From a virus (lineage: Duplodnaviria > Heunggongvirae > Uroviricota > Caudoviricetes): a stretch of DNA of 64,000 nucleotides. The position numbers and the translations under genes are program-made. Each line of letters starts with the position of its first letter. The first letter of the stretch is position 1. The DNA is taken from positions 31,540-95,539 of the IMG/VR virus record IMGVR_UViG_3300009941_000125, one strand, 5' to 3'. Shown piece after piece: positions 4,696-49,867 of this stretch. The notes below the pieces were generated by a model. The model had not been told where the DNA came from, made no database searches, and worked only from the letters and a program-made list of their open reading frames with translations.

Positions 4696-4730
4696 ATGAA
4701 CCAACTGAGCTGCCACTGCTCCACCCTGCG
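4696..4730 (-). tRNA. tRNA(CAU) 5' half: acceptor 5' strand, D-arm, anticodon-stem 5' strand and UUCAU of the loop.
   Basis: Minus strand reads CGCAGGG-TG-GAGC-AGTGGCA-GCTC-A-GTTGG-TTCAT, with U8, a 4-bp D-stem and a 7-nt D-loop containing GG. It begins at the nucleotide right after the TGA stop of the methyltransferase gene. Confidence 0.5.
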
Positions 4731-5354
4731 TCACTTTTTAGCTTTTAAAAATAACCATCGCTTAGTCTCTGCTAAGTCGTCAATAGAACATTTAAAATAT
4801 TTACTAACTTGTTCTATTAATGACTCTTTAGTGTAATGTCTGAAATGAGATGGGAAACAACAATTCCCATTAGGTACACTAATAAGTATTTGACCACCAT
4901 TCGCTAACACTCTATGGCATTCTTCTAACGTTCTAAATGGATCAGCTACATGCTCTAACGTTTCAGCCATAATAATAGTATCAAAAGAATAATTAGAAAA
5001 AGGTAACTCTTCTGACCATGCTTGGAATAAAGATATTTTCTTTTGAATCTCTAATGGTTCTTTATTAACGGCTTCTTTTGCTTTTTCTATACACTCTGCT
5101 ACAATATCAATTCCTACTATTTCAAAACCTTTTCTTGCGGCAAGCAATTCAACAATTCCATCAGCACATCCAATATCTAAAATCTTACCTGCTAATCTAG
5201 TTATAAACCAACTAATCCTTTTTGTTTCAATACCATTAGGATGAGCTTCTATAAACTCTTTAGCTTTGCTTTGGTATTGTGTATTAAGAGTCTCAACGAG
5301 CTCTTTATCTACAATCTCATCACTACTAAAATCTTTTTTCCAAATATGCTTCAT
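4731..5354 (-). CDS. Class I SAM-dependent methyltransferase.
   Basis: 207 aa with motif I LDIGCADG and post-I EIVGIDI; IIMAETLEHV and GGQILISVPN follow. Confidence 0.75.
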   Translation of the reverse strand: MKHIWKKDFSSDEIVDKELVETLNTQYQSKAKEFIEAHPNGIETKRISWFITRLAGKILDIGCADGIVELLAARKGFEIVGIDIVAECIEKAKEAVNKEPLEIQKKISLFQAWSEELPFSNYSFDTIIMAETLEHVADPFRTLEECHRVLANGGQILISVPNGNCCFPSHFRHYTKESLIEQVSKYFKCSIDDLAETKRWLFLKAKK

Positions 5355-5584
5355 AATAGTTCTTTTTCTGCTATCTTCATAATTGAATACTTTTTATCCC
5401 CAACTACAATTGCTGGCGGATACTGAAAATTATGAAATGTAAATTCCATTAAGCCTTCTGGTTCATCTATTGATAACCATTTGACTGTATATTTATCAGT
5501 CATTTTCTCAAGCTTCTTTCCAATCTCTTTAGCAAGCTTACATTTCTCACAACCAGCTTTAGTAAATATTAAGACGTTTTGCAT
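5351..5584 (-). CDS. Glutaredoxin/NrdH-like thioredoxin-fold protein.
   Basis: 77 aa with CxxC (CEKC) at the N-terminus of a short alpha/beta protein. It sits near nrdG and nrdD. Confidence 0.55.
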   Translation of the reverse strand: MQNVLIFTKAGCEKCKLAKEIGKKLEKMTDKYTVKWLSIDEPEGLMEFTFHNFQYPPAIVVGDKKYSIMKIAEKELL

Positions 5585-5757
5585 AATTCTTTCTCCAAAC
5601 TACTTAAACTTTTTATTGTTTTTCTATAAATAGATCTCAATTCAGGGGTCAATTCATTCATCATTAATCCAATTTCAAACTTTTCTTGTAAATACCAAAT
5701 ATCAGCTATATCAAATTCTCCATTATCAAAAGATTGAGTATACATTGTCGACTTCAC
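5569..5757 (-). CDS. hypothetical protein
   Basis: 62-aa ORF. Confidence 0.3.
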   Translation of the reverse strand: MKSTMYTQSFDNGEFDIADIWYLQEKFEIGLMMNELTPELRSIYRKTIKSLSSLEKELCKTS

Positions 5758-14835: not shown

Positions 14836-15106
14836 TTTGTTTTTGTCCTACTACTATAAATATTGCTTCATTAACATCTAAATTCAACGCTGGCAAAACT
14901 TGAATTCCTTCTATTGTAAACTCTTGACAGCTTTCTTTAGAAAAGGTACTAATTACTAAATAATCTAAAAATATATCCTTTACTCTATTAAAGAAACCTT
15001 GTCCACAAAAACAAACAATATGCGGATACTCATATCTTGTTTTTAAATCTAGAAGAGTTTTATGAAATAATTCAAAATTAACTTTATTAAGATTCTTTAC
15101 TTTCAT
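14756..15106 (-). CDS. Hypothetical protein; its 3' end overlaps the terminase start.
   Basis: 116-aa ORF with an 80-nt overlap, so the basic tail may not be translated. Confidence 0.35.
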   Translation of the reverse strand: MKVKNLNKVNFELFHKTLLDLKTRYEYPHIVCFCGQGFFNRVKDIFLDYLVISTFSKESCQEFTIEGIQVLPALNLDVNEAIFIVVGQKQNECREFYRRSPKKQRTKRVRRKNKDR

Positions 15107-15596
15107 CTTTTAACAACTCTTTAACTTTTTTTACACACTCATCAACCGACATTGTATCTGTATGAATCATTAAATCTGGGAATCTTGGTTCTTCATATGG
15201 ATCGCTTATACCTGTAAAATGGGGAATCTCTCCTGTAATTGCTTTTGCATATAAACCTTTAGGGTCTCTTCTCTTACACTCATCAATAGAACACTTAACA
15301 TAAACAATCTTTACATCTTCAACTTTTTTCTGTACTGCTTGTCTTGTTTCTTCATAGGGTGAAATGAAAGAACAAATAATAGTTTCAAAGAATGGTGAAA
15401 GTATCTTAACTAAATAAGCTGCTCTTCCAACATTAGTATCTCTTTCTTTCTTACTAAACCCAATAGGATAAAACATATTACGAATAACATCACCGTCTAA
15501 ATTAATACATGATTCACCTAAATCTTTTTGTAACGCTTTAGCAATGGTCGTTTTTCCTGAAGCGCTTAATCCAGTCATCCATATCACTTTTGCCAT
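15087..15596 (-). CDS. cysC: Adenylylsulfate (APS) kinase.
   Basis: 169 aa with P-loop WMTGLSASGKTTIA, LDGDVIR and FSKKERDTNVGR, which are the canonical CysC motifs. Confidence 0.85.
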   Translation of the reverse strand: MAKVIWMTGLSASGKTTIAKALQKDLGESCINLDGDVIRNMFYPIGFSKKERDTNVGRAAYLVKILSPFFETIICSFISPYEETRQAVQKKVEDVKIVYVKCSIDECKRRDPKGLYAKAITGEIPHFTGISDPYEEPRFPDLMIHTDTMSVDECVKKVKELLKDESKES

Positions 15597-15668
15597 CTTT
15601 TACCTCCAAAACTTTACAAGTATAAAACCCTATAATAAATGAAAGAATTATTATTAATATAATATAAA

Positions 15669-16430
15669 CTATTTGCATAAAAGAATATATAATGTATAAC
15701 TCCCTAATATAAAAGTTCCTATACCAATAGTAAATCTTAAAAATTTATCATTAATTTTTTTAACACTAAGAGCCGCTAAGGGAGTAGCACAAAGTGCCCC
15801 AATTGTTAAATAAGGAGCTAATGTCCAATCAACATTAAAATTAGTCATTAACATATAACAAATAACTCCAATTAAACAAGTCAATCCTTCTGCCCAAGTA
15901 GTAATCCCTATTGCTTGTTTAGCTTTTCCTCCAACTAGCAATTGCCCTGCCGTCATTACCGGCCCATATCCTCCTGCGCTAATTCCTTTGTTAAACGATG
16001 CCAATAGGCCAATACCAATTATTTTTTTAAAAGAATATTTAAATGTTTTGTTAAGTGTTGTTAGTACAAGAATTCCCATTGACAAAACCATTCCACTTAT
16101 ATACAATTTTACAAAAAACTTTGGAATTGATGTTGCTATAAATACAGCTGCTATTGTTCCAATAATTCCACATATTCCCAAAATAGTAGCTAACCTTAAA
16201 TCTTCTTTATCTATATTTCCTACTTTATGATGAAAAAAACCTCCAATTAAACCTGTACACAATTCAGAAACTAATATAGCAGGAACTATTTGTATGACAC
16301 TAAATCCCATTAATAAAAAAATTGGAGCTAAAACTGTTCCATATCCCATTCCTAATGTCGAATCCATATATTCCATTACAAAAGCCCATGCTACTAAAAC
16401 TAATCCTAAACCTAAAGCTAATTCAAACAC
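15669..16430 (-). CDS. TauE/SafE (DUF81) family anion permease.
   Basis: 253 aa and polytopic, with an internally repeated 4-TM architecture and Gly-rich helices typical of sulfite/sulfonate exporter-type permeases. Confidence 0.6.
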   Translation of the reverse strand: MFELALGLGLVLVAWAFVMEYMDSTLGMGYGTVLAPIFLLMGFSVIQIVPAILVSELCTGLIGGFFHHKVGNIDKEDLRLATILGICGIIGTIAAVFIATSIPKFFVKLYISGMVLSMGILVLTTLNKTFKYSFKKIIGIGLLASFNKGISAGGYGPVMTAGQLLVGGKAKQAIGITTWAEGLTCLIGVICYMLMTNFNVDWTLAPYLTIGALCATPLAALSVKKINDKFLRFTIGIGTFILGSYTLYILLCK

Positions 16431-16450
16431 TACTCCTCCTATCTATTTCC

Positions 16451-16645
16451 TTAAACTTTTCTTCTTGGCATTCTGCCTACGGGACCTCTTCCTCTGCCTA
16501 CTCCTAAACCTCTACCATTACCGCCACTTCTAATTTTAGCTCCAGGACATTCAGTTGAATTTCCTTTAGCATCAACACAATTTCCTAATCCTCTTCCTGT
16601 TAAAGGGCCCTTTCCGTCTGGACCTGTTCCATTAAATCTTGGCAT
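16451..16645 (-). CDS. Small Gly/Arg-rich protein of the MPRxxGTGPxGxGPxTGRG type.
   Basis: 64 aa. The N-terminal pattern resembles a conserved uncharacterised small-protein family of anaerobes. Confidence 0.4.
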   Translation of the reverse strand: MPRFNGTGPDGKGPLTGRGLGNCVDAKGNSTECPGAKIRSGGNGRGLGVGRGRGPVGRMPRRKV

Positions 16646-16823
16646 TTTTCTCCCCCTTTCTACACTTTATTATTTTTTCAACTACATCTTTTAAACATGC
16701 TGGAACTTGATTTAATTTTCTATGAAAAGCAATGCAATCACAGCAAATTCCTTTTTTATCACACTCTATTAAACAATTACATTTACTTAAATTTCTTTCA
16801 TAATTCTTACACTTGTTTGTCAT
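16632..16823 (-). CDS. Small Cys-rich protein.
   Basis: 63 aa with about 10 Cys in CxC/CC arrangements. Confidence 0.35.
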   Translation of the reverse strand: MTNKCKNYERNLSKCNCLIECDKKGICCDCIAFHRKLNQVPACLKDVVEKIIKCRKGEKNAKI

Positions 16824-17202
16824 TTAATTTTTCTCGTATCTTAGTTGCTGAAATAGACTCTGTTTCTGCATCTAGTTTAATCTTTTCTGTTGACCAGCCA
16901 ACTTTTCTACCATGGACTACTTTTAAAATATTAGGTAAAAGAATTACCTTAACTCTGTTTTCTTTAATCTCTTTTTCAAAAGCTTTTGCAATCATTACAG
17001 TCCTATCGGAATAATTATGAGGATTATTATCTTTTCCATCTGAAGCTCTTAATCCAATACAAATATTATCTCCTCTATCTAAAACTGTCCTCATTAACTT
17101 AATATGTCCTTCATGTAATGGTTGATAACGACCAATAAATAAAGACCATTCCTTTTCATCAGGTTCATTCAATTCTAACATCATTAATAATTTGTCATCC
17201 AT
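16807..17202 (-). CDS. Cytidylyltransferase-fold nucleotidyltransferase (TagD/PPAT/NMNAT-like).
   Basis: 131 aa with FIGRYQPLHEGHIKLM, which carries the (H/T)xGH signature, and a size typical of glycerol-3-phosphate cytidylyltransferase-like enzymes. Confidence 0.6.
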   Translation of the reverse strand: MDDKLLMMLELNEPDEKEWSLFIGRYQPLHEGHIKLMRTVLDRGDNICIGLRASDGKDNNPHNYSDRTVMIAKAFEKEIKENRVKVILLPNILKVVHGRKVGWSTEKIKLDAETESISATKIREKLNDKQV

Positions 17203-17207
17203 TTACT

Positions 17208-17942
17208 TCACTCCTCATATTTTAATTCTTTTAGTAAATCTATAAACTTTGGTTCTGTTAAACACTCCGCTAAATATTCTTTATTAAAATCATCTAGCTT
17301 CTTTTTGTCTTTCCATTTATATACTGAATTAGCATGTAATGGTTGAACTACTCCATTATATGATAAATCTTTTCTATGGGTTGCATATCTAAACCAATTC
17401 TTTAATTCATCAACAAAATCTTCTTCAATGTGCTCACAAATTTTCTTAACAGTAGACTCATAATTTAAAATTAAATCTTCATATTTAATAGTTAACATTG
17501 TAGGATGGTCTTTATACTCTAATCCATTCCTTACATGTCCTACCCATCTACCCCATTTAGTATAAGGTCTATGATAGGGAACTCTTGGATGAATTGATGT
17601 AACTACATCTCTACCGTCTCTGATAATATGAATTAACTTTAAATTATTCTCGAACTGCTCAAGTATTTCAGGAATATAAGCCACATTGTTTGGAGTCTTT
17701 TCAAGCCAACGTACAGCATTAGGTTTCTTTTTAATCTCTGCCTTACGCTCATTAAGTCTATCCTCATAGTCTTTCTTCATTGTTGTAAAGTTCTGATTCT
17801 TAGCGCAATAGTAAGGAACCCAAACCTCTTTCGGTATAGCAAATATCTTTGGATGAGCAGATAAAATAGAAGATAAAAGAGTAGTCCCTGATCGTTGACA
17901 CCCCATTAATATAATAGGACATTTTTTCCACTCTTTTACCAT
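17208..17942 (-). CDS. PAPS-dependent sulfotransferase.
   Basis: 244 aa with the 5'-PSB motif PIILMGCQRSGTTLL and the 3'-PB motif RDGRDVVTS. Confidence 0.8.
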   Translation of the reverse strand: MVKEWKKCPIILMGCQRSGTTLLSSILSAHPKIFAIPKEVWVPYYCAKNQNFTTMKKDYEDRLNERKAEIKKKPNAVRWLEKTPNNVAYIPEILEQFENNLKLIHIIRDGRDVVTSIHPRVPYHRPYTKWGRWVGHVRNGLEYKDHPTMLTIKYEDLILNYESTVKKICEHIEEDFVDELKNWFRYATHRKDLSYNGVVQPLHANSVYKWKDKKKLDDFNKEYLAECLTEPKFIDLLKELKYEE

Positions 17943-23877: not shown

Positions 23878-24075
23878 TTAATTGATTTCAACTACAGTGT
23901 CAAGACACATATCACATAAATAATCTTCAGTCTTAAGAAGTTTTTCTGCTTTCTTTTTTGCATCTTTTAAACTTTTGGCCTCTATTGTTACACATTTCTC
24001 TTCATCATAAGGAACGTAATAAGCATCAAATTCTTTTAATGTCTTTTTCTTTACTTTCTTAATTTTTCTTATCAT
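23878..24075 (-). CDS. hypothetical protein
   Basis: 65-aa ORF. Confidence 0.35.
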   Translation of the reverse strand: MIRKIKKVKKKTLKEFDAYYVPYDEEKCVTIEAKSLKDAKKKAEKLLKTEDYLCDMCLDTVVEIN

Positions 24076-25174
24076 CTTTTACCTCCTTTATAATCTTTAT
24101 AATTCTTTTAGCAGCTTTCCCATCTCCGTAAGGATTGTTTTTATTACTTATTTTATCATATTCTTCTTTATTAGTTAATAACAATGTTGTCATATCAACA
24201 ATCTTAAAAATATCAGTTCCTACTAATTTACATGTTCCGGCTTCTATTCCTTCTGGCCTTTCTGTAGTTTCTCTTATTACTAAAACTGGTTTACCTAAAG
24301 ATGGAGCTTCTTCCTGAACCCCTCCTGAATCAGTAATTATTAAATACGATTGATTCATCAAATTAACAAAGTCAATATAATTATATGGCTCAACAAGTTT
24401 TATATTTTTAATCTCACTTAATTCTTTTAAAAGCATATTTCTTACTTTTGGATTTTTATGCATAGGAAGAACTATTAAATCCTCTTTAAATCTACTTGCT
24501 ATTTCTTTTAAAGCAAAACAAGTTTGTTTCATTGGTTTCCCTAAGCTTTCTCTTCTATGAGTTGTTACTAAAATAATTCTTTTATTTTTAGGAAAACCTA
24601 AATCTTTTTTATATTTCTTAAGAATATAAAATAAAGCATCAATTACTGTATTACCAACTAAATATATAGTATTTGTAGTAACTTCGGAATTTAAAAGATT
24701 ATTTAATGCTTCCTTAGTAGGAACAAAATTAACATCTGCTATTTGTGTTATTAATCTTCTATTAATTTCTTCAGGAAAAGGATTATACTTATTATCTGTT
24801 CTTAATCCTGCTTCAACGTGAACTACTTTTATCTTTAAATAAAAACAAGTTAATGCTGTTATAAATGCTGTTGTTGTATCTCCTTGAACAAACACATAAT
24901 CTGGTTTTTCTTGTTCAAGAATTGGTTTTAGTCTATGTAAGCATCTCTCAGAAATATCAAATAATGTTTGATTAGACTTCATAATATCTAAATCTAAATC
25001 AACATTAATACCAAATGATTTTAATACTTGATATACCATTTCTTTATGCTGCCCAGTTGATATTACTTTAACCTCTAATTTTTTATCTTTTCTTGCTTCA
25101 AGAATAATTGGAGCCATTTTAATTGCTTCTGGCCTAGTACCAAATATAAATACTAATTTATTTTTATTATTCAC
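24059..25174 (-). CDS. wecB: UDP-N-acetylglucosamine 2-epimerase (non-hydrolysing).
   Basis: 371 aa with FGTRPEAIKMAP, PDYVFVQGDTTT, HVEAGLRT and PFPEEINRRL, in close collinearity with WecB/MnaA. Confidence 0.9.
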   Translation of the reverse strand: MNNKNKLVFIFGTRPEAIKMAPIILEARKDKKLEVKVISTGQHKEMVYQVLKSFGINVDLDLDIMKSNQTLFDISERCLHRLKPILEQEKPDYVFVQGDTTTAFITALTCFYLKIKVVHVEAGLRTDNKYNPFPEEINRRLITQIADVNFVPTKEALNNLLNSEVTTNTIYLVGNTVIDALFYILKKYKKDLGFPKNKRIILVTTHRRESLGKPMKQTCFALKEIASRFKEDLIVLPMHKNPKVRNMLLKELSEIKNIKLVEPYNYIDFVNLMNQSYLIITDSGGVQEEAPSLGKPVLVIRETTERPEGIEAGTCKLVGTDIFKIVDMTTLLLTNKEEYDKISNKNNPYGDGKAAKRIIKIIKEVKDDKKN

Positions 25175-41364: not shown

Positions 41365-44300
41365 TTAATTTGTACACTGTTGTTTTACCTTTTTTAAATA
41401 TTTAGACTCATCATAATCATTAAAACACTTAAAGGCACCAGCTTTATTTAAAGATTCTATAACTCTCTTATTAACAACCCTTCTATTAACTTTATCTAAA
41501 AAATCATCAAAACTATCGTAAGGAGCCATTTTAACTATATCCGTTGAAGCCTTTAATCCTATATTTTTAATAAAAGATAATCCATAACGTATTCCTCCGC
41601 TATCAATAGAAAAATAATCTGAACTTTTATTAACATTAGGGTTTAATAGTTCATACCCCATTCTTTTTACTTCTCTTTTATAATCGTTTAATGTTTCTTC
41701 TTTACTAGCATTATTTAAAATAGAAATTAAAAATTCTAATGGATAATATTTTTTTAAATATAAACATTGATAACTAATAATACTATAAGCAACTGCATGA
41801 GCTCTATTAAATGCATAATCCATAAAAGATTCTATAAACTTAAATATTTCACTAGCTTGATCTTTATCTACTCCATTATCAATACATTTTTTTACAAATA
41901 TCTCTTTTGCCTCATCAAACAAATATCCTTTTCCAGAAGCAACTAACTTGGCACCTTTAGATGTTATTTTCCTCAAATCATCAGCTTCTTCATATGTATA
42001 TCCTGCAACTTCTTTTGCTATTCTCATAGAATCTTCTTGAAAAACAACAAGACCATAAGTTCTTTTTAATGGCTTTTTAAGACTAGGATGAAGATAATCT
42101 ATTTTTTCCATTCCATTTTTTCTTTTAGCATATTTTTTAGCATAACCAGACTTTAATGCAGCAGGTCTATGTAATGCATTAACCGCAACTAAATGCTCAA
42201 ACGTTTCAACCCCTATTTCTCTCAACCAATCCTTAATAGAGCGACTTTCAAATTGAAATACACCAGTTGTCTTACCTAAATCAGCCATTTTTAAAATTTC
42301 TTTATCGTTAAGTGATAAATCATAAAATAATGTTTTGTATAAATCCTTTTTCTTTCTTTTTTTAATCAATTCAATAGTTTGTCCAATAACGCTTAATGTA
42401 GAAAGGCCTAAACAATCTAATTTCATCATTTTAATAGCAGAAATACATTTTATATTATCACTACCCTCATCCCATCCTGTAACAATTTCATTTTTGTATA
42501 CGCATAAAGGAACGTGGTCGTAAAGTGTCTCATTTGAAATTACAATTCCAGCAGCATGTGTTGAAAAGTGTCTCACTTGCCCTTCTAATCTTAAAGCAAT
42601 TTCCCATATTTCAGGATATTTCTCAATGTACCTTCTCACGTCGGGCATCGCCTGGGCCTCTTTTAAACTAAATTCATATGGAATATATTTAGTTGCAGCA
42701 ATAACCTCAGGAAGAGGCTTTTCATAAACTCTGGCTAAATCCTTTAATAACCCTCTGCATTTAAATGTACCAAAAGCTCCTATTGAAGAAACCCTATCTT
42801 TTCCATATTTACCAACTAAATATTCTTTAATTTTACTTCTATTTTTAGAATCAAAATCTATATCAATATCAGGCATTTCAGTCCTACCAACATTAATAAA
42901 TCTAGCAAATAACAAATCATGTTTTATTGGATCTACTTTGGTAATATCTAATAAATAGCATAATAAACTACCGCAAGCTGAACCCCTTCCAACGCCAACG
43001 ATTATTTTATTATTTTGTGCCCATTTTACAACATCATAAATAATATAAATAAAATCTATCAACCCTTTGTTTTTAATAATATCATATTCATATTTAATTC
43101 TTTCTTTATACGCTTTATGTTCACTTTTATTAATTTTTTTCTTTATCTCATTCCATCTCTCATTAATAACCTTTTTAATTATTATATCCACATTAATATC
43201 TTTAAATTTAGGCATTTTTTGACTTTCTATATCTATTTCAACATTAACACTATTAGCTATCTCTACAGTATTATCTAAAGCCTCATTCACATCATCTGAG
43301 TAATCTTTACCTATAGTATTAATAAAGTCATCATATGTCTCTTTTCTTGTCTTTAAATGAAACCCACTGTTATCTAACCTATCTTCTTCTAACTTGCTAA
43401 TAGTAATTTTTCTATTTAGCATAGTTAATGTTCGTTGTGCAATATTATCTTCTTTATGAATATAATGAACATCGTTAGTGCATACTAATTTTATTTTATA
43501 TTTATGAGCCAATTCTATTATTTTTTTATTAGCTGTAATTTGATCTTCAAATTTATGGGGTTGGATCTCTAAATAGAAATTATCACCAAACATTTTCTTA
43601 TATTTAGTTACTGTATCAATAACATCTTTTTCAGTAGAATGAATTATCTTCTCAGATATTTCACCAAAAATACAAGCGCTTAAAACAATTAATCCCTTTT
43701 TGTATTTATTTATTAAATCCAAATCGACTCTAGGTCTGTAATAAAAACCCTCAATGTTTCCTAAAGAAGATATTTTAAGAAGATTTTTATAACCAATTTC
43801 ATTTTTAGCTAATAAAATTAAATGATTTCTTTTTTTTCTTTCTTTTTTTAATTTGTTTCTCTCTTCAATGTTATCCCCTTCTTTTTTGTCTTCTAATCCT
43901 TTTACGGTCATATCTTTTACAAGATAAACCTCTATTCCGGGAATAAATTTGATATTTAATTCTTTTGATTTTATATAAGCCCTTAGCGTACTATTCATAT
44001 TACCATGTTCAGTTAAAGCGATTGATTTTTGACCTATTTCTTTACAATGTTTTAGTATATCCCTAACCTTTCCCATTCCATCTAATAATGAAAACTCTGA
44101 ATGACAATGTAAATTAACAAAATTATCATCAATAATTTCTGTAGAAGCTTTTGGAAAAACCTTTTTAGATTTTTTATTTATTTCTTTTCTAACAAAATCA
44201 TAAACATCATTAATAGATCCATGTATAAATTCTTCTTTTCTACATTCTAAATCAACAAAACCATCTTTTCTTTTATTATAATCATCATATTTTACATCTA

Positions 44301-44739
44301 ATAACTTATCTCTCTTTATATATTCTTCAAAAACAAAAGAAGCTGGAATTATAAATCCTTTAGCTTGAGAATTATTTAAAGAAACAAAAAACGTATTGTG
44401 CGGACTCTTTTCTGCTTCTTTTCTACGAGATTTGTTATCCATAAATTGAAGTTTATACCTATCTTCTTTAACTAAACACTCAAGCTCAATAAAAAAACTT
44501 TCTCCATTTTCCATTTCTACTAAAAAATCTTGTATATATGCGTTATCTATATTATTATGTTTAATATATTTTTTTAAATCATTAGGGAGATTATCATAAA
44601 AATCACATTCTTGTATTGTACCGTATACGTAAGGATTATTTCCCTTCCAATTAATTTTTCCAATTTTTAACAACCTACGAAGAAGTTTTTTTCTTCTAGG
44701 CTTATCTTCTAAAAGTTTTATTTTATCTTCATTTTTCAT
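41365..44739 (-). CDS. dnaE: DNA polymerase III alpha subunit (DnaE-like) with an N-terminal PHP domain.
   Basis: 1124 aa with the PHP start VNLHCHSEFSLLDG and the palm motifs VGVGRGSACGSLLCYLLDITKVDP and FARFINVGRTEMPDIDIDF. Confidence 0.9.
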   Translation of the reverse strand: MKNEDKIKLLEDKPRRKKLLRRLLKIGKINWKGNNPYVYGTIQECDFYDNLPNDLKKYIKHNNIDNAYIQDFLVEMENGESFFIELECLVKEDRYKLQFMDNKSRRKEAEKSPHNTFFVSLNNSQAKGFIIPASFVFEEYIKRDKLLDVKYDDYNKRKDGFVDLECRKEEFIHGSINDVYDFVRKEINKKSKKVFPKASTEIIDDNFVNLHCHSEFSLLDGMGKVRDILKHCKEIGQKSIALTEHGNMNSTLRAYIKSKELNIKFIPGIEVYLVKDMTVKGLEDKKEGDNIEERNKLKKERKKRNHLILLAKNEIGYKNLLKISSLGNIEGFYYRPRVDLDLINKYKKGLIVLSACIFGEISEKIIHSTEKDVIDTVTKYKKMFGDNFYLEIQPHKFEDQITANKKIIELAHKYKIKLVCTNDVHYIHKEDNIAQRTLTMLNRKITISKLEEDRLDNSGFHLKTRKETYDDFINTIGKDYSDDVNEALDNTVEIANSVNVEIDIESQKMPKFKDINVDIIIKKVINERWNEIKKKINKSEHKAYKERIKYEYDIIKNKGLIDFIYIIYDVVKWAQNNKIIVGVGRGSACGSLLCYLLDITKVDPIKHDLLFARFINVGRTEMPDIDIDFDSKNRSKIKEYLVGKYGKDRVSSIGAFGTFKCRGLLKDLARVYEKPLPEVIAATKYIPYEFSLKEAQAMPDVRRYIEKYPEIWEIALRLEGQVRHFSTHAAGIVISNETLYDHVPLCVYKNEIVTGWDEGSDNIKCISAIKMMKLDCLGLSTLSVIGQTIELIKKRKKKDLYKTLFYDLSLNDKEILKMADLGKTTGVFQFESRSIKDWLREIGVETFEHLVAVNALHRPAALKSGYAKKYAKRKNGMEKIDYLHPSLKKPLKRTYGLVVFQEDSMRIAKEVAGYTYEEADDLRKITSKGAKLVASGKGYLFDEAKEIFVKKCIDNGVDKDQASEIFKFIESFMDYAFNRAHAVAYSIISYQCLYLKKYYPLEFLISILNNASKEETLNDYKREVKRMGYELLNPNVNKSSDYFSIDSGGIRYGLSFIKNIGLKASTDIVKMAPYDSFDDFLDKVNRRVVNKRVIESLNKAGAFKCFNDYDESKYLKKVKQQCTN

Positions 44740-45169
44740 ATTTTCTCACTATTATTTCTGTTTCTTTCAATAAATCTCTAGCTAATTCATCATTATAATA
44801 TTCAATATAAACTATTTCTTTAATTTTAGCATTTATTAACATCTTAGTACACCAACAACATGGATGGGCAGAACAATATACTGTTGCACCCTCTGGATTG
44901 GTATGTTTTAATGCACATTGAATTAAAGCATTCATTTCGGCGTGAGACCCCCTACATAATTCCGATTGAGTACCGCTTTTTATATTTTGCTGTTGCCTTA
45001 AACACCCAACCTCGCTACAATGTCTTAATCCAGATGGAGCACCATTATACCCTGTGGATAATATCATATTGTCCTTAACAATTACAGCGCCAACTTTTCT
45101 TCTTAAACAAGTTGATTGGGTTGCCATTTCATTAACTATATTTATAAATAATTTATCTTTATTTTTCAT
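44729..45169 (-). CDS. dCMP deaminase (CMP/dCMP deaminase zinc-binding family).
   Basis: 146 aa with HAEMNAL and PCCWCTKML, the H(A)E...PCxxC zinc ligands. Confidence 0.85.
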   Translation of the reverse strand: MKNKDKLFINIVNEMATQSTCLRRKVGAVIVKDNMILSTGYNGAPSGLRHCSEVGCLRQQQNIKSGTQSELCRGSHAEMNALIQCALKHTNPEGATVYCSAHPCCWCTKMLINAKIKEIVYIEYYNDELARDLLKETEIIVRKYEK

Positions 45170-45947
45170 TTATCACCACAAGTTCCTCTATATTTTTTTC
45201 ATACCAACTTTGAGGATAATGTAACTCAATTTTTTCTTTTAATTTGACCTGGTATATTCTTTTATTATTACTATTTATCATATTTTTAACTAATTCAAGA
45301 TCATTTTTATAAATATGAACGCTTCCAATATTTATTGATAATCCACCCAATTCTAAATCACCATATTTATCTTTCAAATCAAAAAGTAATTGTTGCTGAA
45401 CTATACTCCAAAAAGGAATATCGAAAGTTAACCCCTTAATCATATCTGACGACCTAATATATATAATGCTATGAAGCTTACCATTTCTTATAAAAAATTG
45501 TTGTAATTGAGTGCAACAAAAATCCTTATTATTATAATAATATAAATCTTTATCATTATATAAAATTACAGCTTTTCTAGAAAATTGATCAATAATTAAC
45601 TGATCCTTAACCCAATTATATTGAGTATTACAATATTTATTTGATTTATAAAAAACTAAATGCCCATAATTTGAATTGACCGTACCATCTTCGTTTTTTA
45701 TCTTATTCCAAAACTTAGAATATTTAGCTATATCATCAACATCTCTAGAGCCAGAAAAATACCACGAAAGCTCTCCAAATAAATATTTCTTTATTAAAGG
45801 GAGCTCTCTAACAGAATCAACAGAATATAAGTTTGTTGTATCAAGCGAAAGCTTCTTTTCTATTAATTCTTTTGTTTCTAATCCTCTACTTATTATTGTT
45901 GGGGCTGTATTGTGCACTTCTGCTAGTAAATCAAAATATCTATACAT
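45159..45947 (-). CDS. Thymidylate-synthase-family pyrimidine C5-modifying enzyme with a dCMP-type specificity residue; candidate dCMP hydroxymethylase or methylase.
   Basis: 262 aa, collinear with ThyA (ELSWYFSG vs ELLWFLQG). The catalytic Cys region is FCCTQLQQFF. RSSDMIKGLTFDIPF aligns with the ThyA block RSGDMGLGVPFNIAS, placing Asp where ThyA has the Asn that selects dUMP. Confidence 0.75.
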   Translation of the reverse strand: MYRYFDLLAEVHNTAPTIISRGLETKELIEKKLSLDTTNLYSVDSVRELPLIKKYLFGELSWYFSGSRDVDDIAKYSKFWNKIKNEDGTVNSNYGHLVFYKSNKYCNTQYNWVKDQLIIDQFSRKAVILYNDKDLYYYNNKDFCCTQLQQFFIRNGKLHSIIYIRSSDMIKGLTFDIPFWSIVQQQLLFDLKDKYGDLELGGLSINIGSVHIYKNDLELVKNMINSNNKRIYQVKLKEKIELHYPQSWYEKNIEELVVINEK

Positions 45948-47034
45948 TTTTTCTCCTTTCTAATAAATCAACAAAATATTTTACATCCATAAACTCTAAC
46001 TTTTCAATTTGTTTTTTATATAAATTAAATTTAGATAGTTTACTCATACTTAATAAATTATTATACTTTTTAATAAAATCTTCTGGCGAATCAACAATTA
46101 ATTCTGGAATTAAATAAAATTCTATCCCGTTAAACTCTCTAAACCCAATAGGTAGACTACCAAAGTATAGTGTCTCTAATATTCTTGCTGTCATGTGGCC
46201 ATATTCTAAATAACTTTTTTTAGCTAATAACGGTGAACAAATTGAATCGCCATAAACTTCCAGAAAACGATCTTTAGCTATTCTGTCATTATAACTTATA
46301 TTAGGCCATTTTTTACTAATTCTATCAAATTCATCAGGATATTTCTTCCAATTACCATAAAATTTAACTTTATTGGAATATTCATTAGAAAGAGGTTTTA
46401 TATATTTATCAATCATTTCTTCTCTTTCATAATTATTCCCAACATATAATACAACGTCGCTATACCTCTCACTTAACCCATAATCCATAATTTTTCTCAT
46501 ATCAAAAGGAACATGTATTCTTTGTCTTTTTTTAGTTATATACCTAGGTGTTGTTGAGGTTTCAACAAAATTAGCTCTTATATATTTTTTCTCGTCATCA
46601 CTAGTAACTTTATGATCTTGATCCCAAATCATTATTTTAGTTTCATTTTTATTATGATAATATTCTAAAATTTCATTTTGCCTTTGAAGATCAGGAGTAT
46701 ACCCTTGAGTTTTTATATCTTTTAATGTATTCCTTCCAGGTATAGGCCATCTCCATTCAACATATAAAATATCTAATTCAGGAAAATTATCCTTCTCAAC
46801 AAAATTTAATAGCTCATAAGCTTCTTTTCTATCTCGAGCCAAAAAGTTTTTAAATATTAACTCTTCGCCCAATTTACCATCCCTATCCTCTTGAAGAGCA
46901 TATATTTTATATCCTCTTTTATGTAATTCAAATATAAGATGCGGTAAATAGAAATTAGCGCCAGAAGGACTGTCGGGAACATTATCGCCCAAATAAGACC
47001 AAAAAGATAAACCTACCGACTTGTTTTTTCCCAT
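45940..47034 (-). CDS. GT-B-fold glycosyltransferase-like protein; possible DNA hydroxymethylpyrimidine glycosyltransferase.
   Basis: 364 aa with a GT-B-like N-terminus. Blocks YVGNNYEREEM, FYGNWKKYP and RILETLYFGS recall, from memory, T4 beta-glucosyltransferase blocks YGGSFRSGQRE, FFGNAREKQFKNPKYPW and RVWETMASDAV. The similarity is weak and unverified. Confidence 0.4.
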   Translation of the reverse strand: MGKNKSVGLSFWSYLGDNVPDSPSGANFYLPHLIFELHKRGYKIYALQEDRDGKLGEELIFKNFLARDRKEAYELLNFVEKDNFPELDILYVEWRWPIPGRNTLKDIKTQGYTPDLQRQNEILEYYHNKNETKIMIWDQDHKVTSDDEKKYIRANFVETSTTPRYITKKRQRIHVPFDMRKIMDYGLSERYSDVVLYVGNNYEREEMIDKYIKPLSNEYSNKVKFYGNWKKYPDEFDRISKKWPNISYNDRIAKDRFLEVYGDSICSPLLAKKSYLEYGHMTARILETLYFGSLPIGFREFNGIEFYLIPELIVDSPEDFIKKYNNLLSMSKLSKFNLYKKQIEKLEFMDVKYFVDLLERRKNV

Positions 47035-47564
47035 TGAATAATCTCCTTTGTTATTTCATTGCTATCTTTCGTTGATGTGTCGATCTTCATTAACGGCAAT
47101 TTAGTCATTTTTAAATATTTTTTATATAAGCTGCAGGCCTTAATTATTTGTTTATCATTAAATCTATCATCACTTCTTTCTTTATAACGTTTTTTAATTA
47201 TATTAGAATTAGCAAAAAGAAAATATATTTTAGCCTCACATAATGCAGCTATCATTTTATCATATTTTTTAATATATTCTAAATCAAATTCTCTATTAAC
47301 TAATTCTGAATAAACTGCGTGACTCCATATAAATCTATCCATAATAATATAAGAATCTTTTGTCTTTCCTAAACTTTCAAATGCTTTGTATGTTTGATAA
47401 AACATATCTAATCTAAATTGAGACCATAAATCCACTTCTTTGTGAGTTAAATTTTTAGGCGGACCACCTGATGTAACAATTCTTGAATTAGACAATGTTT
47501 TTGCCAGCTTATTCGCAACAGTAGTTTTATAGCACAAATCTGGGCCTTCTAAAATTATTATCAT
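47013..47564 (-). CDS. P-loop deoxynucleotide kinase (dNMP/dTMP-kinase-like).
   Basis: 183 aa with N-terminal IIILEGPDLCYKTT (degenerate Walker A) and a DRF motif; the size fits nucleotide monophosphate kinases. Confidence 0.55.
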   Translation of the reverse strand: MIIILEGPDLCYKTTVANKLAKTLSNSRIVTSGGPPKNLTHKEVDLWSQFRLDMFYQTYKAFESLGKTKDSYIIMDRFIWSHAVYSELVNREFDLEYIKKYDKMIAALCEAKIYFLFANSNIIKKRYKERSDDRFNDKQIIKACSLYKKYLKMTKLPLMKIDTSTKDSNEITKEIIQWEKTSR

Positions 47565-48661
47565 ATGCTTTTTAAAATCTCCTTAGATAAATCTATTGCT
47601 TGTTTAATCGCAACATCCATATTTATATATTGAAACCTACCTAATCTTCCTGCAAAAATAACATTAGGCGGAATTAATTTAACATATTTATTATATAACA
47701 TTTTATTTGATTCATCTTGCATAGGATAGCTTTTATTATATCCACTAGCAATACCTGGATATTCTATCGCTTTAACTACAGGACTTCCTATATTATTATA
47801 AAATTGATTCATTTCTGTAATTCTAACGTAATCAATATTCTCATTAGGGTAATTATAAACGGCACATTTTTGATTTATTAAAGCAGATGATTCAAACACA
47901 ATATTTTGACCTCTATATTCTAATCTGCCTAATTGATAATTAAAAAACTCATCTATCGGTGATGTAACAATAAGTAAATCACGTTTTTTATATATATCAT
48001 CAAACGTTTTATATTCCTGCCTTAAAATTAATTCAATATTTTTATTATCTATCATGTTTTTCATCATATCATAATAACCACTAACTGGAATACCTTGATA
48101 TTTATCTACAAAAAATCTATCATCATAATTATATTTAATTGGAATCCTTCCAGCAAAAGAAGGTGTTAATTTAGAAGGATCTTTACCCCATTGCTTTTTT
48201 GTATACCCATTAATAAATTTATCGTATAAAGTCTTTCCGATTTTCTTTATCATAACGTTTTTAAAATTACTATCATCAAAAACGTCTTTAACCTCGTTTA
48301 TTTGTTTATCAATAAACAATTTAGCTTCTTCAGAACTCATGTTTTTATTAAAAACCTTATTTATAGTATTTAAATTTATAGGCCAATCATATTCTTCATT
48401 ACCAATAACAACCTTTACTTTATGAATATAATCATTTAAAGTTGTAAATTTATTTAATAAATCAATAGCCTCTTGATGATTAGTATGAAAAATATGCGGA
48501 CCAAATTCTTGTATTATAACGCCATCATCATTTTTAAAATCATGGCAATGACCCCCAAGACGCTTATTTTTCTCAATAATAGTAATATCTAAACTTGAAC
48601 CTAAAAGATGAGCTAGCGTACAACCTGTTAACCCAGCCCCTATAATTATAACTTTTTTCAT
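47561..48661 (-). CDS. glf: UDP-galactopyranose mutase.
   Basis: 366 aa with GAGLTGCTLA (FAD), FGPHIFHTN, GYTKKQWG, RIPIKYN, DRYQGIPVSGY, LEYR, YVRITEMN and FAGRLGRFQY, in near-complete collinearity with bacterial Glf. Confidence 0.9.
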   Translation of the reverse strand: MKKVIIIGAGLTGCTLAHLLGSSLDITIIEKNKRLGGHCHDFKNDDGVIIQEFGPHIFHTNHQEAIDLLNKFTTLNDYIHKVKVVIGNEEYDWPINLNTINKVFNKNMSSEEAKLFIDKQINEVKDVFDDSNFKNVMIKKIGKTLYDKFINGYTKKQWGKDPSKLTPSFAGRIPIKYNYDDRFFVDKYQGIPVSGYYDMMKNMIDNKNIELILRQEYKTFDDIYKKRDLLIVTSPIDEFFNYQLGRLEYRGQNIVFESSALINQKCAVYNYPNENIDYVRITEMNQFYNNIGSPVVKAIEYPGIASGYNKSYPMQDESNKMLYNKYVKLIPPNVIFAGRLGRFQYINMDVAIKQAIDLSKEILKSI

Positions 48662-48769
48662 ATTGATAATACCCCTTGTAGAACCTTTTTTTGATAAGGA
48701 ACTCCTGGGTTCTGACTAATTATTAATAACTTAACATTAGTTCCACAAAACCCAGGCGATATTACTTTC

Positions 48770-49108
48770 CTAGTAGCCCTTTTGTTGTCTTTCATGATTT
48801 ACTTTGTTCTTTTTTAAATAGCAATTATATAAATCTGAAGCATCCCATTTGTTAATAATAGCTAATTCAATAAAGAAATGCAAAACGTCAATATATTCTT
48901 CAAACAACTTTTCCTTATTAACTGGAGTTAATTTTTTCCAGTGTTTTCTTCGGGGAATTTCTTTTCTCATTTCAATAAGCTCTTCTATACAATGATCGAT
49001 AAATTCTAAACTTAGAACCTCTCTCTCTATATCAGACAAGCCATCAAAATTAATAAATTTTTCCCCGAACGCTCTTTGTAACCTAAAAATTTCTTCTAAT
49101 GTACCCAT
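48770..49108 (-). CDS. MazG-like nucleoside triphosphate pyrophosphohydrolase.
   Basis: 112 aa with the EExxE (CIEELIEMRKE) ... ExxD (FEEYIDV) metal-binding motif pair of the all-alpha NTP-PPase fold. Confidence 0.6.
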   Translation of the reverse strand: MGTLEEIFRLQRAFGEKFINFDGLSDIEREVLSLEFIDHCIEELIEMRKEIPRRKHWKKLTPVNKEKLFEEYIDVLHFFIELAIINKWDASDLYNCYLKKNKVNHERQQKGY

Positions 49109-49117
49109 TACATCTCC

Positions 49118-49867
49118 TTAATCTAAAAGATCATCGTCATCGTCATCGTCGTCTTCTTCTACAGCTTTGGGAGCCACTTTAGCGGCTGATCTTGTAGAAG
49201 TTTCTTTTTTTTCACCTCTTCTAGACTCTTTTACTGGCTCTTCTTTCTTTTTATCACTACCTACACCATCAAAACTTTTCCCATTTCCTTTATCTTTCAA
49301 AAGAGCCTCTATCTCTTCTTTTGTTTTGGTATAAGCAATAACGACTTCGTCTAAATCAATATCATCTTTTTGTGCCAATTCTTTCTCTGTCAAGCCGCGG
49401 ACTGTACTTCTAATATCATGAAGTTCATATTCAATCCAATTATTCTTGTTTCTTTTCTTAGAAAAAGAATAATCAACATCTGTTATGTCTCCATTTTCTT
49501 CATAATCATCTGCAAGCATATTACGTACACCGCGTGTTCCTTCTAATAATTTAGCTTTATTGTCTTCTCTATCAATAACAATTGCTAAAATTTTCTCCAC
49601 AGCTTTACCAACTGGAACTTTAAATCCATCTTCAGCTATTTTACATAGTGGGCAATCAAATTCATCATTTTCTGGATCGTTTAAGCAAAGAACGCTTCCT
49701 TTAAATCCATTTGATAAATTAAGGTAATGCCTTTTCCAAACAACGATGTCTTCTCCACCTGTTAAAAACCTTATAACCTTTGTATCATTTTCCTTTATTT
49801 TGAACCAAGGAAATGAACTGTCTGCACTTGAACTTTGTGAAAAACTACCTAATCCTTTTTTAACCAT
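49118..49867 (-). CDS. Single-stranded DNA-binding protein (gp32-like) with an acidic C-terminal tail.
   Basis: 249 aa with H...C-x10-C-x2-C arranged as in T4 gp32, and an Asp-rich C-terminus. Confidence 0.5.
   Translation of the reverse strand: MVKKGLGSFSQSSSADSSFPWFKIKENDTKVIRFLTGGEDIVVWKRHYLNLSNGFKGSVLCLNDPENDEFDCPLCKIAEDGFKVPVGKAVEKILAIVIDREDNKAKLLEGTRGVRNMLADDYEENGDITDVDYSFSKKRNKNNWIEYELHDIRSTVRGLTEKELAQKDDIDLDEVVIAYTKTKEEIEALLKDKGNGKSFDGVGSDKKKEEPVKESRRGEKKETSTRSAAKVAPKAVEEDDDDDDDDLLD

Follow-up and report, generated by a model that had tools for sequence, protein, structure and literature searches.

Does the phage whose DNA is analysed here glycosylate its cytosine, as T-even phages do, and if so with which sugar? 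The question arises from six genes in a 64,000-nucleotide stretch (the window), which an earlier note had read as a T4-like cytosine modification cassette with glycosylation. In silico this reading is supported: the analysis shows what the genes are, how their products are predicted to fold, which residues are kept and how the genes are linked across loci. We consider the cassette to be the DNA-modification block of the phage replication module, working like the T-even 5-hydroxymethylcytosine (5hmC) system with UDP-galactofuranose (UDP-Galf) as the leading candidate for the sugar donor, and give this reading a probability of roughly 0.6.

Gene order and linkage at the locus

The six genes were all found where the earlier note had placed them, all on the minus strand, in an uncultured phage for which no DNA similarity to deposited phages was found. 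Overlaps of 4-22 nt link the genes for a UDP-galactopyranose mutase homologue (Glf), a kinase, a glycosyltransferase (GT), a ThyA homologue, a dCMP deaminase (dCD) and the DnaE polymerase; the Glf stop and the kinase start overlap by 4 nt, and the dCD gene overlaps both the ThyA-like gene and the DnaE gene by 11 nt. These mutual overlaps suggest that the products, from Glf to DnaE, are co-translated. Chance does not account for this arrangement: the genes are found together again in 82 further loci carrying the GT family. Specifically, in 78 of the 82 a member of the kinase family is encoded no more than 6 kb from the GT, nearly always directly adjoining it, and gp42-type ThyA-like genes (68 loci), DnaE (73) and dCD (57) lie within 8 kb. 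The two closest relatives of the window locus (GT identity 63% and 60%) have the identical order Glf-kinase-GT-ThyA-dCD-DnaE, with Glf conserved in both.

A predicted route to 5-hydroxymethyl-dCMP

The ThyA homologue (45159-45947, minus strand; 262 aa) matches Pfam Thymidylat_synt (PF00303, E 1.6e-21) over profile positions 2-238 of 266 only, and its best match in the Protein Data Bank (PDB) is T4 dCMP hydroxymethylase (gp42; E 4.2e-20), with MilA and all thymidylate synthases ranking behind. Against the NCBIfam ThyA equivalogs it scores at most 64.5 bits (cut-offs 108-576), and T4 gp42 likewise falls below. The aligned active site reads E58, W80, Y94, L143D, C146, D169 (kept), G173 and N177D, and thus contains the T4 gp42 signature (L143D, C146, D169, G173, N177D), which is common to 67 of 67 complete ThyA homologues adjoining the GT family. 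PDB search and residue signature together place the enzyme nearest to T4 dCMP hydroxymethylase and not to the thymidylate synthases. The replacement of the dUMP-selecting Asn by Asp, to which the earlier note had drawn attention, was confirmed in the motif RSSDMIKGLTFD, whose last Asp aligns with Asp179 of T4 gp42 and Asn177 of Escherichia coli ThyA, a correspondence resting on two independent alignments. N177D and L143D, with the folate-side residues Trp80, Asp169 and Gly173 retained, argue for 5-hydroxymethyl-dCMP and disfavour dTMP, 5-hydroxymethyl-dUMP and 5-hydroxy-dCMP as products, the L143 rule that separates hydroxymethyl from methyl products being a correlation rather than proof. The experimentally verified 5-hydroxy-dCMP synthases, gp48 of RB69 and gp216 of Rhizobium phage RL38J1, follow residue rules that include D169N (PMC13326640); since the window enzyme is without this change, its predicted product is 5-hydroxymethyl-dCMP. 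Synthesis of 5hmC by the cassette is highly probable.

The remaining nucleotide enzymes are consistent with such a route. The kinase (47013-47564, minus strand; 183 aa; Pfam Thymidylate_kin, E 1.1e-8; PHROG 761 thymidylate kinase, E 1.8e-17) is a P-loop (d)NMP kinase and a predicted 5-hydroxymethyl-dCMP kinase, whose best solved relative is YorR of the SPbeta prophage (2axp, E 3.4e-15), with which it has in common the unusual P-loop ILEGPD(L/C)C(Y/F)K(T/S)T. The deaminase (44729-45169, minus strand; 146 aa) belongs to dCMP_cyt_deam_1 (PF00383, E 1.6e-21) and to PHROG 174, dCMP deaminase (E 1.6e-44). The MazG-like, all-alpha NTP pyrophosphatase (48770-49108, minus strand; 112 aa; Pfam dUTPase_2, PF08761, E 4e-14; PHROG 173, NTP pyrophosphohydrolase) is predicted to clear dCTP and dUTP. 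The dCTPase-type role proposed for it earlier gains support from T4 gp56 dCTPase, which itself matches PF08761 and can be aligned with the window protein over residues 52-112 of the latter (28% identity, pairwise E 5e-8). The window protein is far shorter than gp56 (112 versus 171 aa), and the phage proteins most closely related to it carry a dUTPase annotation. In 31 related loci the gene immediately upstream of the kinase is MazG-like; the two closest relatives have a trimeric dUTPase (PF00692) in this slot.

From these genes we infer the enzymatic steps and, further below, the identity of the sugar. The gp56-family pyrophosphatase would hydrolyse dCTP (and dUTP) to the monophosphate, and the gp42-type enzyme, judging by its active-site signature, would convert dCMP and methylene-tetrahydrofolate into 5-hydroxymethyl-dCMP. 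The YorR-like kinase would phosphorylate this product, leading to incorporation of 5hmC by the phage DnaE, and the deaminase would turn part of the dCMP pool into dUMP, from which the host would make dTMP; the window yielded neither a second ThyA gene nor a ThyX gene.

The glycosyltransferase and its candidate donor

The 364-aa protein encoded at 45940-47034 (minus strand) has no Pfam match, missing even the T4 beta-glucosyltransferase (BGT) model, and no PHROG match. Its predicted structure is a confident GT-B fold (pLDDT 93.8), and the profile of its family, searched against the whole PDB, returns T4 BGT as the sole significant match (E 7e-7). In hhalign the family and T4 BGT match at 94.6% over 299 columns, a full-length match in which the UDP-binding positions are conserved and the catalytic base Asp100 corresponds to an invariant Glu (Glu93 in the window protein); the control GT-B proteins RL38J1 gp151, gp215 and gp237 all stay below 1% against the same family. 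The resemblance to phage hydroxymethylcytosine glucosyltransferases suspected in the earlier note is thereby upheld, despite the lack of a Pfam match: by fold and profile, the protein belongs to an unnamed GT-B family that is a remote homologue of T4 DNA beta-glucosyltransferase. The family comprises about 360-620 cluster representatives, most of them acidic (median pI 5.6; window GT 8.46), and includes one natural fusion of the GT to a gp42-type dCMP hydroxymethylase (P0024) and one member with an N-terminal helix-turn-helix (HTH) domain. The window GT probably glycosylates 5hmC in DNA. After replication, the BGT-like enzyme would move the sugar of a UDP-sugar onto the hydroxymethyl group of 5hmC, with Glu93 standing in for Asp100, and the co-translated Glf would convert host UDP-galactopyranose into UDP-Galf, the most likely donor.

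Glf (47561-48661, minus strand; 366 aa; Pfam GLF, E 1.6e-52) was rightly named as a UDP-galactopyranose mutase (UGM) homologue: it matches the UGMs in the PDB at E 1e-68 to 5e-53, keeps the catalytic residues (retaining H60, H63, Y155, T156, W160, R174, N270, R280, Y314, R343 and Y349, Klebsiella pneumoniae numbering) and recurs beside the GT family. Its substrate could nevertheless differ, because two substrate-contact positions are substituted (N84H and Y185F) and its score of 247.9 bits lies under the TIGR00031 equivalog cut-off of 303.75. Glf is present in 23 of the 82 GT loci, mostly touching the GT; none lies within 8 kb in the other 59, and the GT family as a whole is therefore not tied to galactofuranose. 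In the window's own GT clade, all 20 loci have either Glf (6) or a homologue of RGP-type UDP-arabinopyranose mutase (14) beside the GT. We rate UDP-Galf as the donor of the window GT tentatively, at even odds or slightly less. The earlier note also held that an adduct made from UDP-Galf would be new; the donor stands as a candidate, but Glf-linked cytosine glycosylation was proposed earlier for RL38J1, on 5-hydroxycytosine, which makes the idea less unprecedented than was assumed.

Alternative readings and known systems

Could the GT instead use host UDP-glucose or UDP-galactopyranose on 5hmC, as in T4, with Glf serving virion or host-surface glycans built by the phage's other glycosyltransferases? 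The homology of the GT family to a glucosyltransferase fits this, as do the 59 of 82 loci without nearby Glf, the six loci that have no sugar gene whatever beside the GT, and the many further sugar enzymes elsewhere in the phage, possible users of UDP-Galf: a UDP-GlcNAc 2-epimerase and a sulfotransferase, together with several GT1 enzymes, a pyruvyl transferase and a UDP-glucose dehydrogenase encoded a short way outside the window, past its start. We nonetheless regard it as unlikely. Glf overlaps the kinase gene and belongs to the nucleotide block, with tens of kb separating it from these other sugar genes; it touches the GT or the kinase across several unrelated gene orders and GT clades; the corresponding slot in the window's clade always holds Glf or the RGP homologue; and a ThyA-GT-Glf trio also occurs with another GT family, in Lactobacillus phage ATCCB.

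That the pathway ends at unglycosylated 5hmC or 5-methylcytosine, the GT and Glf acting on a non-DNA acceptor, is quite improbable given the specific homology to T4 BGT, the fusion to a gp42-type enzyme and the near-universal adjacency to such an enzyme and the kinase; L143D speaks against a methylase. The same fusion, the kinase that almost always adjoins the GT, DnaE within 8 kb and the mostly acidic GT family would suit glycosylation of 5-hydroxymethyl-dCMP, or a later phosphorylated form, before polymerization, with a dedicated kinase and DnaE handling the bulky precursor. This is very improbable: the sole detectable solved homologue of the GT acts on 5hmC in duplex DNA, one family member has the HTH domain, T4 combines a like 42/beta-gt/polymerase neighbourhood with post-replicative glucosylation, and we know of no case of pre-replicative nucleotide glycosylation. 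Scarcely credible, finally, is that the ThyA homologue makes 5-hydroxy-dCMP, like the RB69/DLP3/RL38J1 synthases, and that the sugar is joined straight to C5 by an ether oxygen, the RL38J1 linkage, even though in RL38J1 the genes for a ThyA homologue, a GT and a kinase lie side by side, Glf is encoded elsewhere in the genome and the DNA carries galactose-first hexosylated 5-hydroxycytosine (PMC13326640). RB69 gp48 and RL38J1 gp216 have A80, the diagnostic N169 and V173, whereas the window enzyme aligns with T4 gp42 in W80, D169 and G173 and is far closer to gp42 (E 4e-20) than to gp216 (pairwise E 1e-5 over 69 residues); nor is the window GT detectably related to any of the three RL38J1 GTs.

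The preferred reading, glycosylated 5hmC, has its nearest counterpart in the T-even system (gp42, gp1 dNMP kinase, gp56 dCTPase, Cd dCMP deaminase and alpha- and beta-glucosyltransferases), whose enzymatic roles are identical to those predicted here. The likeness extends to the gp42 signature, to the beta-GT homology with its catalytic and UDP-binding positions, to the Pfam family of gp56 and to gene order: in T4, genes 42 and beta-gt lie side by side with the polymerase gene as their neighbour, and in the window hydroxymethylase, GT and polymerase are likewise neighbours. By contrast, the window GT is too diverged for the Pfam T4 BGT model, the kinase is YorR/TMK-like, the polymerase is of the DnaE type and not family B, Glf is built into the operon, and a phage thymidylate synthase was not found in the window.

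Other phages share parts of this logic. For RL38J1 and other Pootjesviridae, whose cytosine adduct is described above, a supply of UDP-Galf has been proposed (Lee et al., NAR 2026, PMC13326640); in both, a ThyA homologue, a GT-B GT and a TMK-like kinase adjoin one another, and a phage Glf would provide a furanose donor for modifying cytosine. In RL38J1 Glf lies far from these three genes; here it is inside the operon. RB69 and DLP3 carry arabinofuranosyl-5-hydroxycytosine, the ThyA homologue making the precursor nucleotide and phage GTs acting on DNA (PMC13326640). A furanose on a C5-modified cytosine is likewise predicted for the window, with a different base, sugar and donor pathway (an arabinose-5-phosphate isomerase route in RB69/DLP3); relatives of the window GT adjoin the RGP-family mutase homologue instead. 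In the cultured phage ATCCB (MK504445), genes 0045-0047 encode, one after another, a ThyA homologue with the gp42 signature, a GT and a Glf (34% identical to the window Glf). Its GT, however, is a regular Pfam T4-Gluco-transf member (E 9e-22) that matches the window family weakly, over the C-terminal 99 columns only, and no kinase, deaminase or DnaE adjoins the trio; the cassette is annotated in the record, and the words glucosyltransferase, galactopyranose, thymidylate, restriction and modif are all absent from the isolation paper. Burke et al. (bioRxiv 10.1101/2023.12.21.572611) describe metagenomic GT-B DNA glycosyltransferases that accompany thymidylate-synthase homologues. These too are phage enzymes with T4-BGT-like predicted folds, next to ThyS and partner sugar-nucleotide enzyme genes, and their activity often depended on a partner epimerase; the clusters tested there, unlike the window's, were methyltransferase/TET-linked, and in a word search neither mutase nor furanose nor arabinose turned up in the preprint.

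If the reading is correct, cytosine in the DNA of this phage would be replaced by 5-hydroxymethylcytosine carrying an unusual five-membered-ring galactose; an inverting mechanism like that of BGT would make the base beta-galactofuranosyl-5-hydroxymethylcytosine.

A candidate DNA-modification cassette in a phage replication module

The window belongs to a phage, with a large terminase, an anaerobic ribonucleotide reductase (NrdD), RtcB and two tRNAs among its markers, a single coding strand for all genes and a GC content of 25–33%. An ORF map of the window recovered all six reading frames named in the earlier note, on the minus strand and with the same boundaries. Specifically, in the direction of transcription, a dUTPase_2/MazG-like protein of 112 aa (48770–49108) is followed after a 108-nt gap by a UDP-galactopyranose mutase homologue (Glf; 47561–48661), a P-loop kinase (47013–47564), the 364-aa predicted glycosyltransferase (GT; 45940–47034), a ThyA homologue (45159–45947) and a dCMP deaminase (44729–45169), directly after which comes a DnaE-type polymerase of 1124 aa (41365–44739, minus strand). 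From Glf to DnaE, successive genes overlap by 4–22 nt each. Pfam and PHROG scans agreed with the gene identities proposed earlier for five of the six; the 364-aa protein had no match in either.

The cassette is part of a replication module with the order DnaC-like loader, DnaB, primase, flap endonuclease, Zn-finger/acidic-tail protein, cassette, DnaE, RecA, RuvC and Cas4-like nuclease. The Zn-finger/acidic-tail protein (249 aa; 49118–49867, minus strand) is probably the single-strand DNA-binding protein of the phage. Its gene separates that of the flap endonuclease from that of the pyrophosphatase, and the protein combines a CxxC pair with eight consecutive Asp residues near its C terminus and matches SSB weakly in PHROG (E = 0.0025); in 29 related loci, a similar acidic-tail protein is encoded in the interval from primase to MazG. 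Scanned for promoters and terminators, the 44–50-kb region (27–30% GC) gave 51 promoter-like sites where 38 would be expected and zero minus-strand terminators, an outcome that carries little information at such a base composition. Searching the cassette by blastn against 50,697 phage records returned only a 69-nt match in the deaminase, with no close deposited relative, and a tblastn search of deposited phage genomes with the GT returned zero matches. Because these searches were essentially empty, there is no cultured relative with which to compare the cassette.

A glycosyltransferase family related to T4 beta-glucosyltransferase

Among 5.8 billion proteins, 40 relatives of the 364-aa protein were found, none of them named. 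Four have a weak match to Glyco_trans_1_2, including P0024 (613 aa), in which the GT is fused to a ThyA homologue bearing the signature of T4 dCMP hydroxymethylase (gp42). An exhaustive search with a family profile, run over 1.84 billion cluster representatives, expanded the family to 622 members at E ≤ 1e-3, 363 of them at E ≤ 1e-10. The AlphaFold model, built with an alignment of 36 sequences (pLDDT 93.8, pTM 0.92), has the two Rossmann domains of a GT-B fold, in agreement with Foldseek, and its matches in a library of viral structures are other GT-B proteins of phages. By itself the fold does not point to the T4 enzymes; it is sequence comparison that does so.

A single-sequence search of the PDB with the GT gave noise only, and homology to T4 DNA beta-glucosyltransferase (BGT) became visible only with the family profile. 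When the profile HMM (A1) was run with hmmsearch against 177,635 distinct PDB sequences, T4 BGT was the sole significant match (E = 7.1e-7), followed by a ribosomal protein at E = 0.024. Profile alignment with hhalign linked the family to T4 BGT at 94.6% probability over 299 columns; control comparisons with three further phage GT-B proteins each stayed below 1%. PF09198, the Pfam family of T4 BGT (CAZy GT63), did not match the GT at E 0.1 or better. The comparison with beta-GT families proposed in the earlier note therefore came out in favour of a GT-B fold and profile-level homology to BGT, and against membership of PF09198. Since the relationship emerges at the profile level only, the 364-aa protein is, on this evidence, a distant sister family of T4 BGT outside the curated Pfam family.

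Residue pairing, based on the hhalign alignment together with the 36-sequence family alignment, is consistent with this placement. Glu93 of the window protein pairs with Asp100, the catalytic base of BGT, and Arg204, Ile252, Tyr275, Arg284 and Glu287 pair with Arg195, Ile238, Tyr261, Arg269 and Glu272, respectively, all of them UDP-binding residues in BGT; Arg95 pairs with Arg102. Glu93, Arg204, Tyr275, Arg284 and Glu287 are invariant across the 36 sequences, and an invariant Tyr202 occupies the position of BGT Arg191.

The predicted acceptor is 5-hydroxymethylcytosine (5hmC) in duplex DNA, for which the adjacency and fusion of the GT to a hydroxymethylase and a fusion to a helix–turn–helix domain provide indirect support. 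Overall charge, taken as an indicator of DNA binding, is not supportive: the family is mostly acidic (median pI 5.6), which counts mildly against a duplex-DNA acceptor. Two GT-family fusion proteins, P0152 and P0159, carry, one, a C-terminal SAM-dependent methyltransferase and, the other, the helix–turn–helix domain just mentioned, an N-terminal HTH_58 DNA-binding domain; the methyltransferase fusion possibly reflects methylation of the sugar.

A predicted dCMP hydroxymethylase and its companion enzymes

The ThyA homologue matches PF00303 (E = 1.6e-21), with the match stopping at profile position 238 of 266, and its catalytic Cys aligns with E. coli C146 and T4 C148. Its best solved relative in the PDB search is T4 dCMP hydroxymethylase (E = 4.2e-20), ahead of the CMP hydroxymethylase MilA (1.7e-13) and of every thymidylate synthase (1.8e-11 or weaker). 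Aligned with E. coli ThyA, T4 gp42, RB69 gp48 and gp216 of Rhizobium phage RL38J1, the window protein has (in E. coli ThyA numbering) Glu58, Trp80, Tyr94, Asp at Leu143, Cys146, Asp169, Gly173 and Asp at Asn177. The Asn-to-Asp replacement pointed out in the earlier note was upheld, the final D of RSSDMIKGLTFD aligning with T4 D179 and E. coli N177 in two alignments.

These residues discriminate among the products that such an enzyme might make. N177D, the change that selects dCMP under a rule restated in PMC13326640, argues against a canonical thymidylate synthase, and so do the NCBIfam scores, which for the window protein, as for T4 gp42, fall far under all thymidylate-synthase cut-offs (the best ThyA equivalog gives the window protein 64.5 bits where 327 are required). 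We likewise rejected a deaminase-fed pathway to 5-hydroxymethyluracil because of N177D. With neither ThyX nor a second ThyA detected in the Pfam maps that jointly cover the window, dUMP made by the deaminase would need to be methylated by the host enzyme. Some phage ThyA homologues yield 5-hydroxy-dCMP rather than 5-hydroxymethyl-dCMP, and those have Asn169 (PMC13326640, 2026). The experimentally verified 5-hydroxy enzymes RB69 gp48 and RL38J1 gp216 have Ala80, Asn169 and Val173, all three absent from both the window enzyme and T4 gp42, and the retention of Asp169, without the diagnostic D169N, sets the window enzyme apart from this branch (RB69 gp48, DLP3 gp80 and RL38J1 gp216). A dCMP methylase is disfavoured by L143D: acidic residues at position 143 are correlated with hydroxymethyl, not methyl, products (PMC13326640), and T4 likewise has Asp in this column. 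By these residue rules, we conclude that the ThyA homologue is a predicted gp42-type dCMP hydroxymethylase, as the earlier note had anticipated, and neither a ThyA equivalog nor an enzyme of the 5-hydroxy-dCMP type.

Two further enzymes would act on the nucleotide pool. The best solved relative of the kinase is SPbeta prophage YorR, with which it shares an unusual P-loop, and thymidylate kinase comes second. The 112-aa protein matches PF08761 (E = 4e-14), as does the T4 dCTPase/dUTPase gp56 (25.4 bits, cut-off 22.9), and its own C-terminal 61 residues align with gp56 (pairwise E = 5e-8). No solved relative of this protein was found, and its nearest phage homologues are annotated as dUTPase or NTP pyrophosphohydrolase. 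Membership of the same Pfam family as gp56 makes dCTP hydrolysis a predicted role.

Interchangeable sugar genes and the candidate donor

Neighbouring genes were compared across 82 loci, each encoding a GT relative (80 viral contigs and two Logan contigs). In 78 of these, a member of the kinase family is encoded no more than 6 kb from the GT, nearly always as its immediate neighbour, and within 8 kb are found DnaE (73/82), the ThyA homologue (68/82) and dCMP deaminase (57/82); all 67 complete ThyA homologues at these loci have the gp42 signature. A MazG-like gene is immediately upstream of the kinase in 31 loci. Sugar genes beside the GT–kinase pair are variable: Glf in 23 loci, a member of the plant UDP-arabinopyranose-mutase family (RGP) in 14 and one or two NAD-dependent epimerases in 32, with a radical-SAM protein and a second GT-like protein in some loci and no extra genes in six. 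For most GT-family members, Glf is absent within 8 kb.

When a tree of the GT was built by neighbour joining, the window fell in a clade of 20 loci, which amount to about 15 independent lineages because some contigs are near-duplicates, and all of them have Glf (6) or RGP (14) next to the GT. The two closest relatives (63% and 60% identity) share with the window the order Glf, kinase, GT, ThyA, dCMP deaminase and DnaE, but encode a trimeric dUTPase where the window has an all-alpha pyrophosphatase. The second closest, L092, has a gp42-type ThyA gene split by an intein (4664–5959; 431 aa; PF14890 and PF00303) and a gene of the uracil-DNA-glycosylase family between dUTPase and Glf (1384–1938). 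In another GT clade, a radical-SAM/SPASM protein (PF04055, E = 4e-10) is encoded between kinase and GT (L023, L030, L032–L036, L040–L044 and L078), and in most such loci, L029 and L035 not included, a second GT-like protein of 374 aa follows the ThyA gene; with this combination, the adduct of the phages concerned may be more elaborate.

Glf matches PF03275 (E = 1.6e-52), has an FAD-binding Rossmann N terminus (PF13450, E = 9.6e-15) and aligns over its full length with solved UDP-galactopyranose mutases (E = 1e-68). It keeps R174, R280, W160, Y155, Y314 and Y349 (Klebsiella pneumoniae numbering), which are catalytic or substrate-binding positions in the mutagenesis literature, and 13 of 15 checked active-site positions overall. 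The two exceptions, N84H and Y185F, are common to four of the 27 other phage Glfs compared (L091, L092, L010 and L043), the first three of which are the complete Glfs nearest in the GT clade of the window. Against the NCBIfam equivalog TIGR00031, Glf scores 247.9 bits, below the cut-off of 303.75, so its substrate identity is not guaranteed; it is a diverged member of the family and may have a shifted substrate.

RGP (PF03214, E = 1.3e-36) is encoded directly upstream of the kinase–GT pair in 14 loci without Glf (L003–L006, L008, L009, L011–L017 and L056; for example, L003 6018–7166). Among deposited phage genomes, it matched only one uncultured 595-kb phage, and our literature search retrieved no paper tying UDP-arabinopyranose mutase to phage cytosine modification or phage DNA. 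The argument from RGP is suggestive only, because RGP proteins are also classed as glycosyltransferases. The most likely donor of the GT is predicted to be UDP-galactofuranose (UDP-Galf) from the co-translated Glf, since Glf is embedded in the operon, turns up next to the GT across several clades and under different gene orders, and has its slot filled in sister lineages by a different furanose-forming mutase family.

Many other sugar genes of the phage could consume UDP-Galf. One candidate consumer is a sizeable glycan-building cluster on L090, a JGI contig that runs past the window start; the cluster (L090 6876–12177) takes in window 1–1055 and sequence beyond the window start. It encodes a 676-aa double GT1 protein, a YkvP/CgeB-like GT, a polysaccharide pyruvyl transferase, an acyl-carrier-like protein, a further GT and a UDP-glucose/GDP-mannose dehydrogenase. 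A full-length UDP-N-acetylglucosamine 2-epimerase homologue (24059–25174, minus strand; PF02350, E = 3e-117; PHROG 29538, 'unknown function') is encoded some 21 kb away from the cassette. Beside the terminase, a sulfur-activation run (15087–17942, minus strand) comprises an APS kinase (15087–15596; PF01583, E = 8e-45), a TauE-type membrane transporter (15669–16430; E = 4.5e-27), a small cytidylyltransferase-like nucleotidyltransferase (16807–17202; E = 6e-10) and a sulfotransferase (17208–17942; E = 6e-23), which together could make PAPS and sulfate some acceptor.

Known systems offer several points of comparison. The cassette would operate on the T4 plan, its hydroxymethylase, GT and pyrophosphatase being homologous to those of T4. 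For RL38J1, the proposal is that a 5-hydroxy-dCMP synthase acts with GTs and with a Glf encoded far away to make galactose-first glycans on 5-hydroxycytosine (PMC13326640). That cluster is analogous to the cassette, not orthologous, and we rejected orthology on a different ThyA signature, unrelated GTs and barely similar kinases. A furanose on phage cytosine is already documented, as arabinofuranose on the 5-hydroxycytosine of RB69 and DLP3 (PMC13326640), and an earlier survey covered GT-B enzymes encoded beside ThyS genes together with partner sugar enzymes (bioRxiv 10.1101/2023.12.21.572611). The cultured Lactobacillus phage ATCCB, which adds to the case for a Glf-derived donor, encodes consecutively a gp42-signature ThyA, a GT of the T4 BGT family itself (PF09198, E = 9e-22) and Glf; neither these genes nor DNA modification turned up in word searches of the publication on this phage. 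The T4-like Aeromonas phage 25 (L094, NC_008208; 5998–9269) has a Glf homologue followed by two hypothetical proteins of about 350 aa, both absent from its relative 44RR2.8t and unrelated to the GT family of the window.

A T-even-like pathway is the best-supported reading of the cassette. The canonical dCTP pool would be cleared, dCMP would be hydroxymethylated, the dedicated kinase would phosphorylate the hydroxymethylated nucleotide, and the phage DnaE would incorporate 5hmC, which the BGT-like enzyme would then glycosylate in DNA, most likely with UDP-Galf supplied by Glf. We further propose, tentatively and with a probability of roughly 0.4, that the GT family consists of DNA furanosyltransferases, producing galactofuranosyl-5-hydroxymethylcytosine in the phage of the window and arabinofuranosyl-5-hydroxymethylcytosine in the RGP lineages, with the flanking sugar genes acting as swap-in diversification. 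The literature searched contained no description of this GT family, of its link to T4 BGT or of either furanosyl adduct on 5-hydroxymethylcytosine.

With sugars on their cytosines, phages can evade restriction enzymes and CRISPR nucleases, and these sugars also set which modification-dependent defences detect the phage. Our survey ties to T4 BGT a fairly large uncharacterised GT family (about 360 representatives at E ≤ 1e-10 among 1.8 billion proteins, none in deposited phage genomes) that travels with interchangeable genes for sugar-nucleotide supply, including two unrelated families of pyranose-to-furanose mutases. If the sugar were ordinary glucose, the cassette would amount to a T4-like system that has diverged in an uncultured phage of the DnaE type. 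If the furanosyltransferase reading holds, Glf, RGP, epimerases, and the radical-SAM protein with the second GT would swap around a kinase–GT–hydroxymethylase core; its confirmation would extend the natural DNA bases by one, supply a new enzyme with which to label 5hmC selectively and yield a rule for predicting DNA sugar chemistry from phage genomes.
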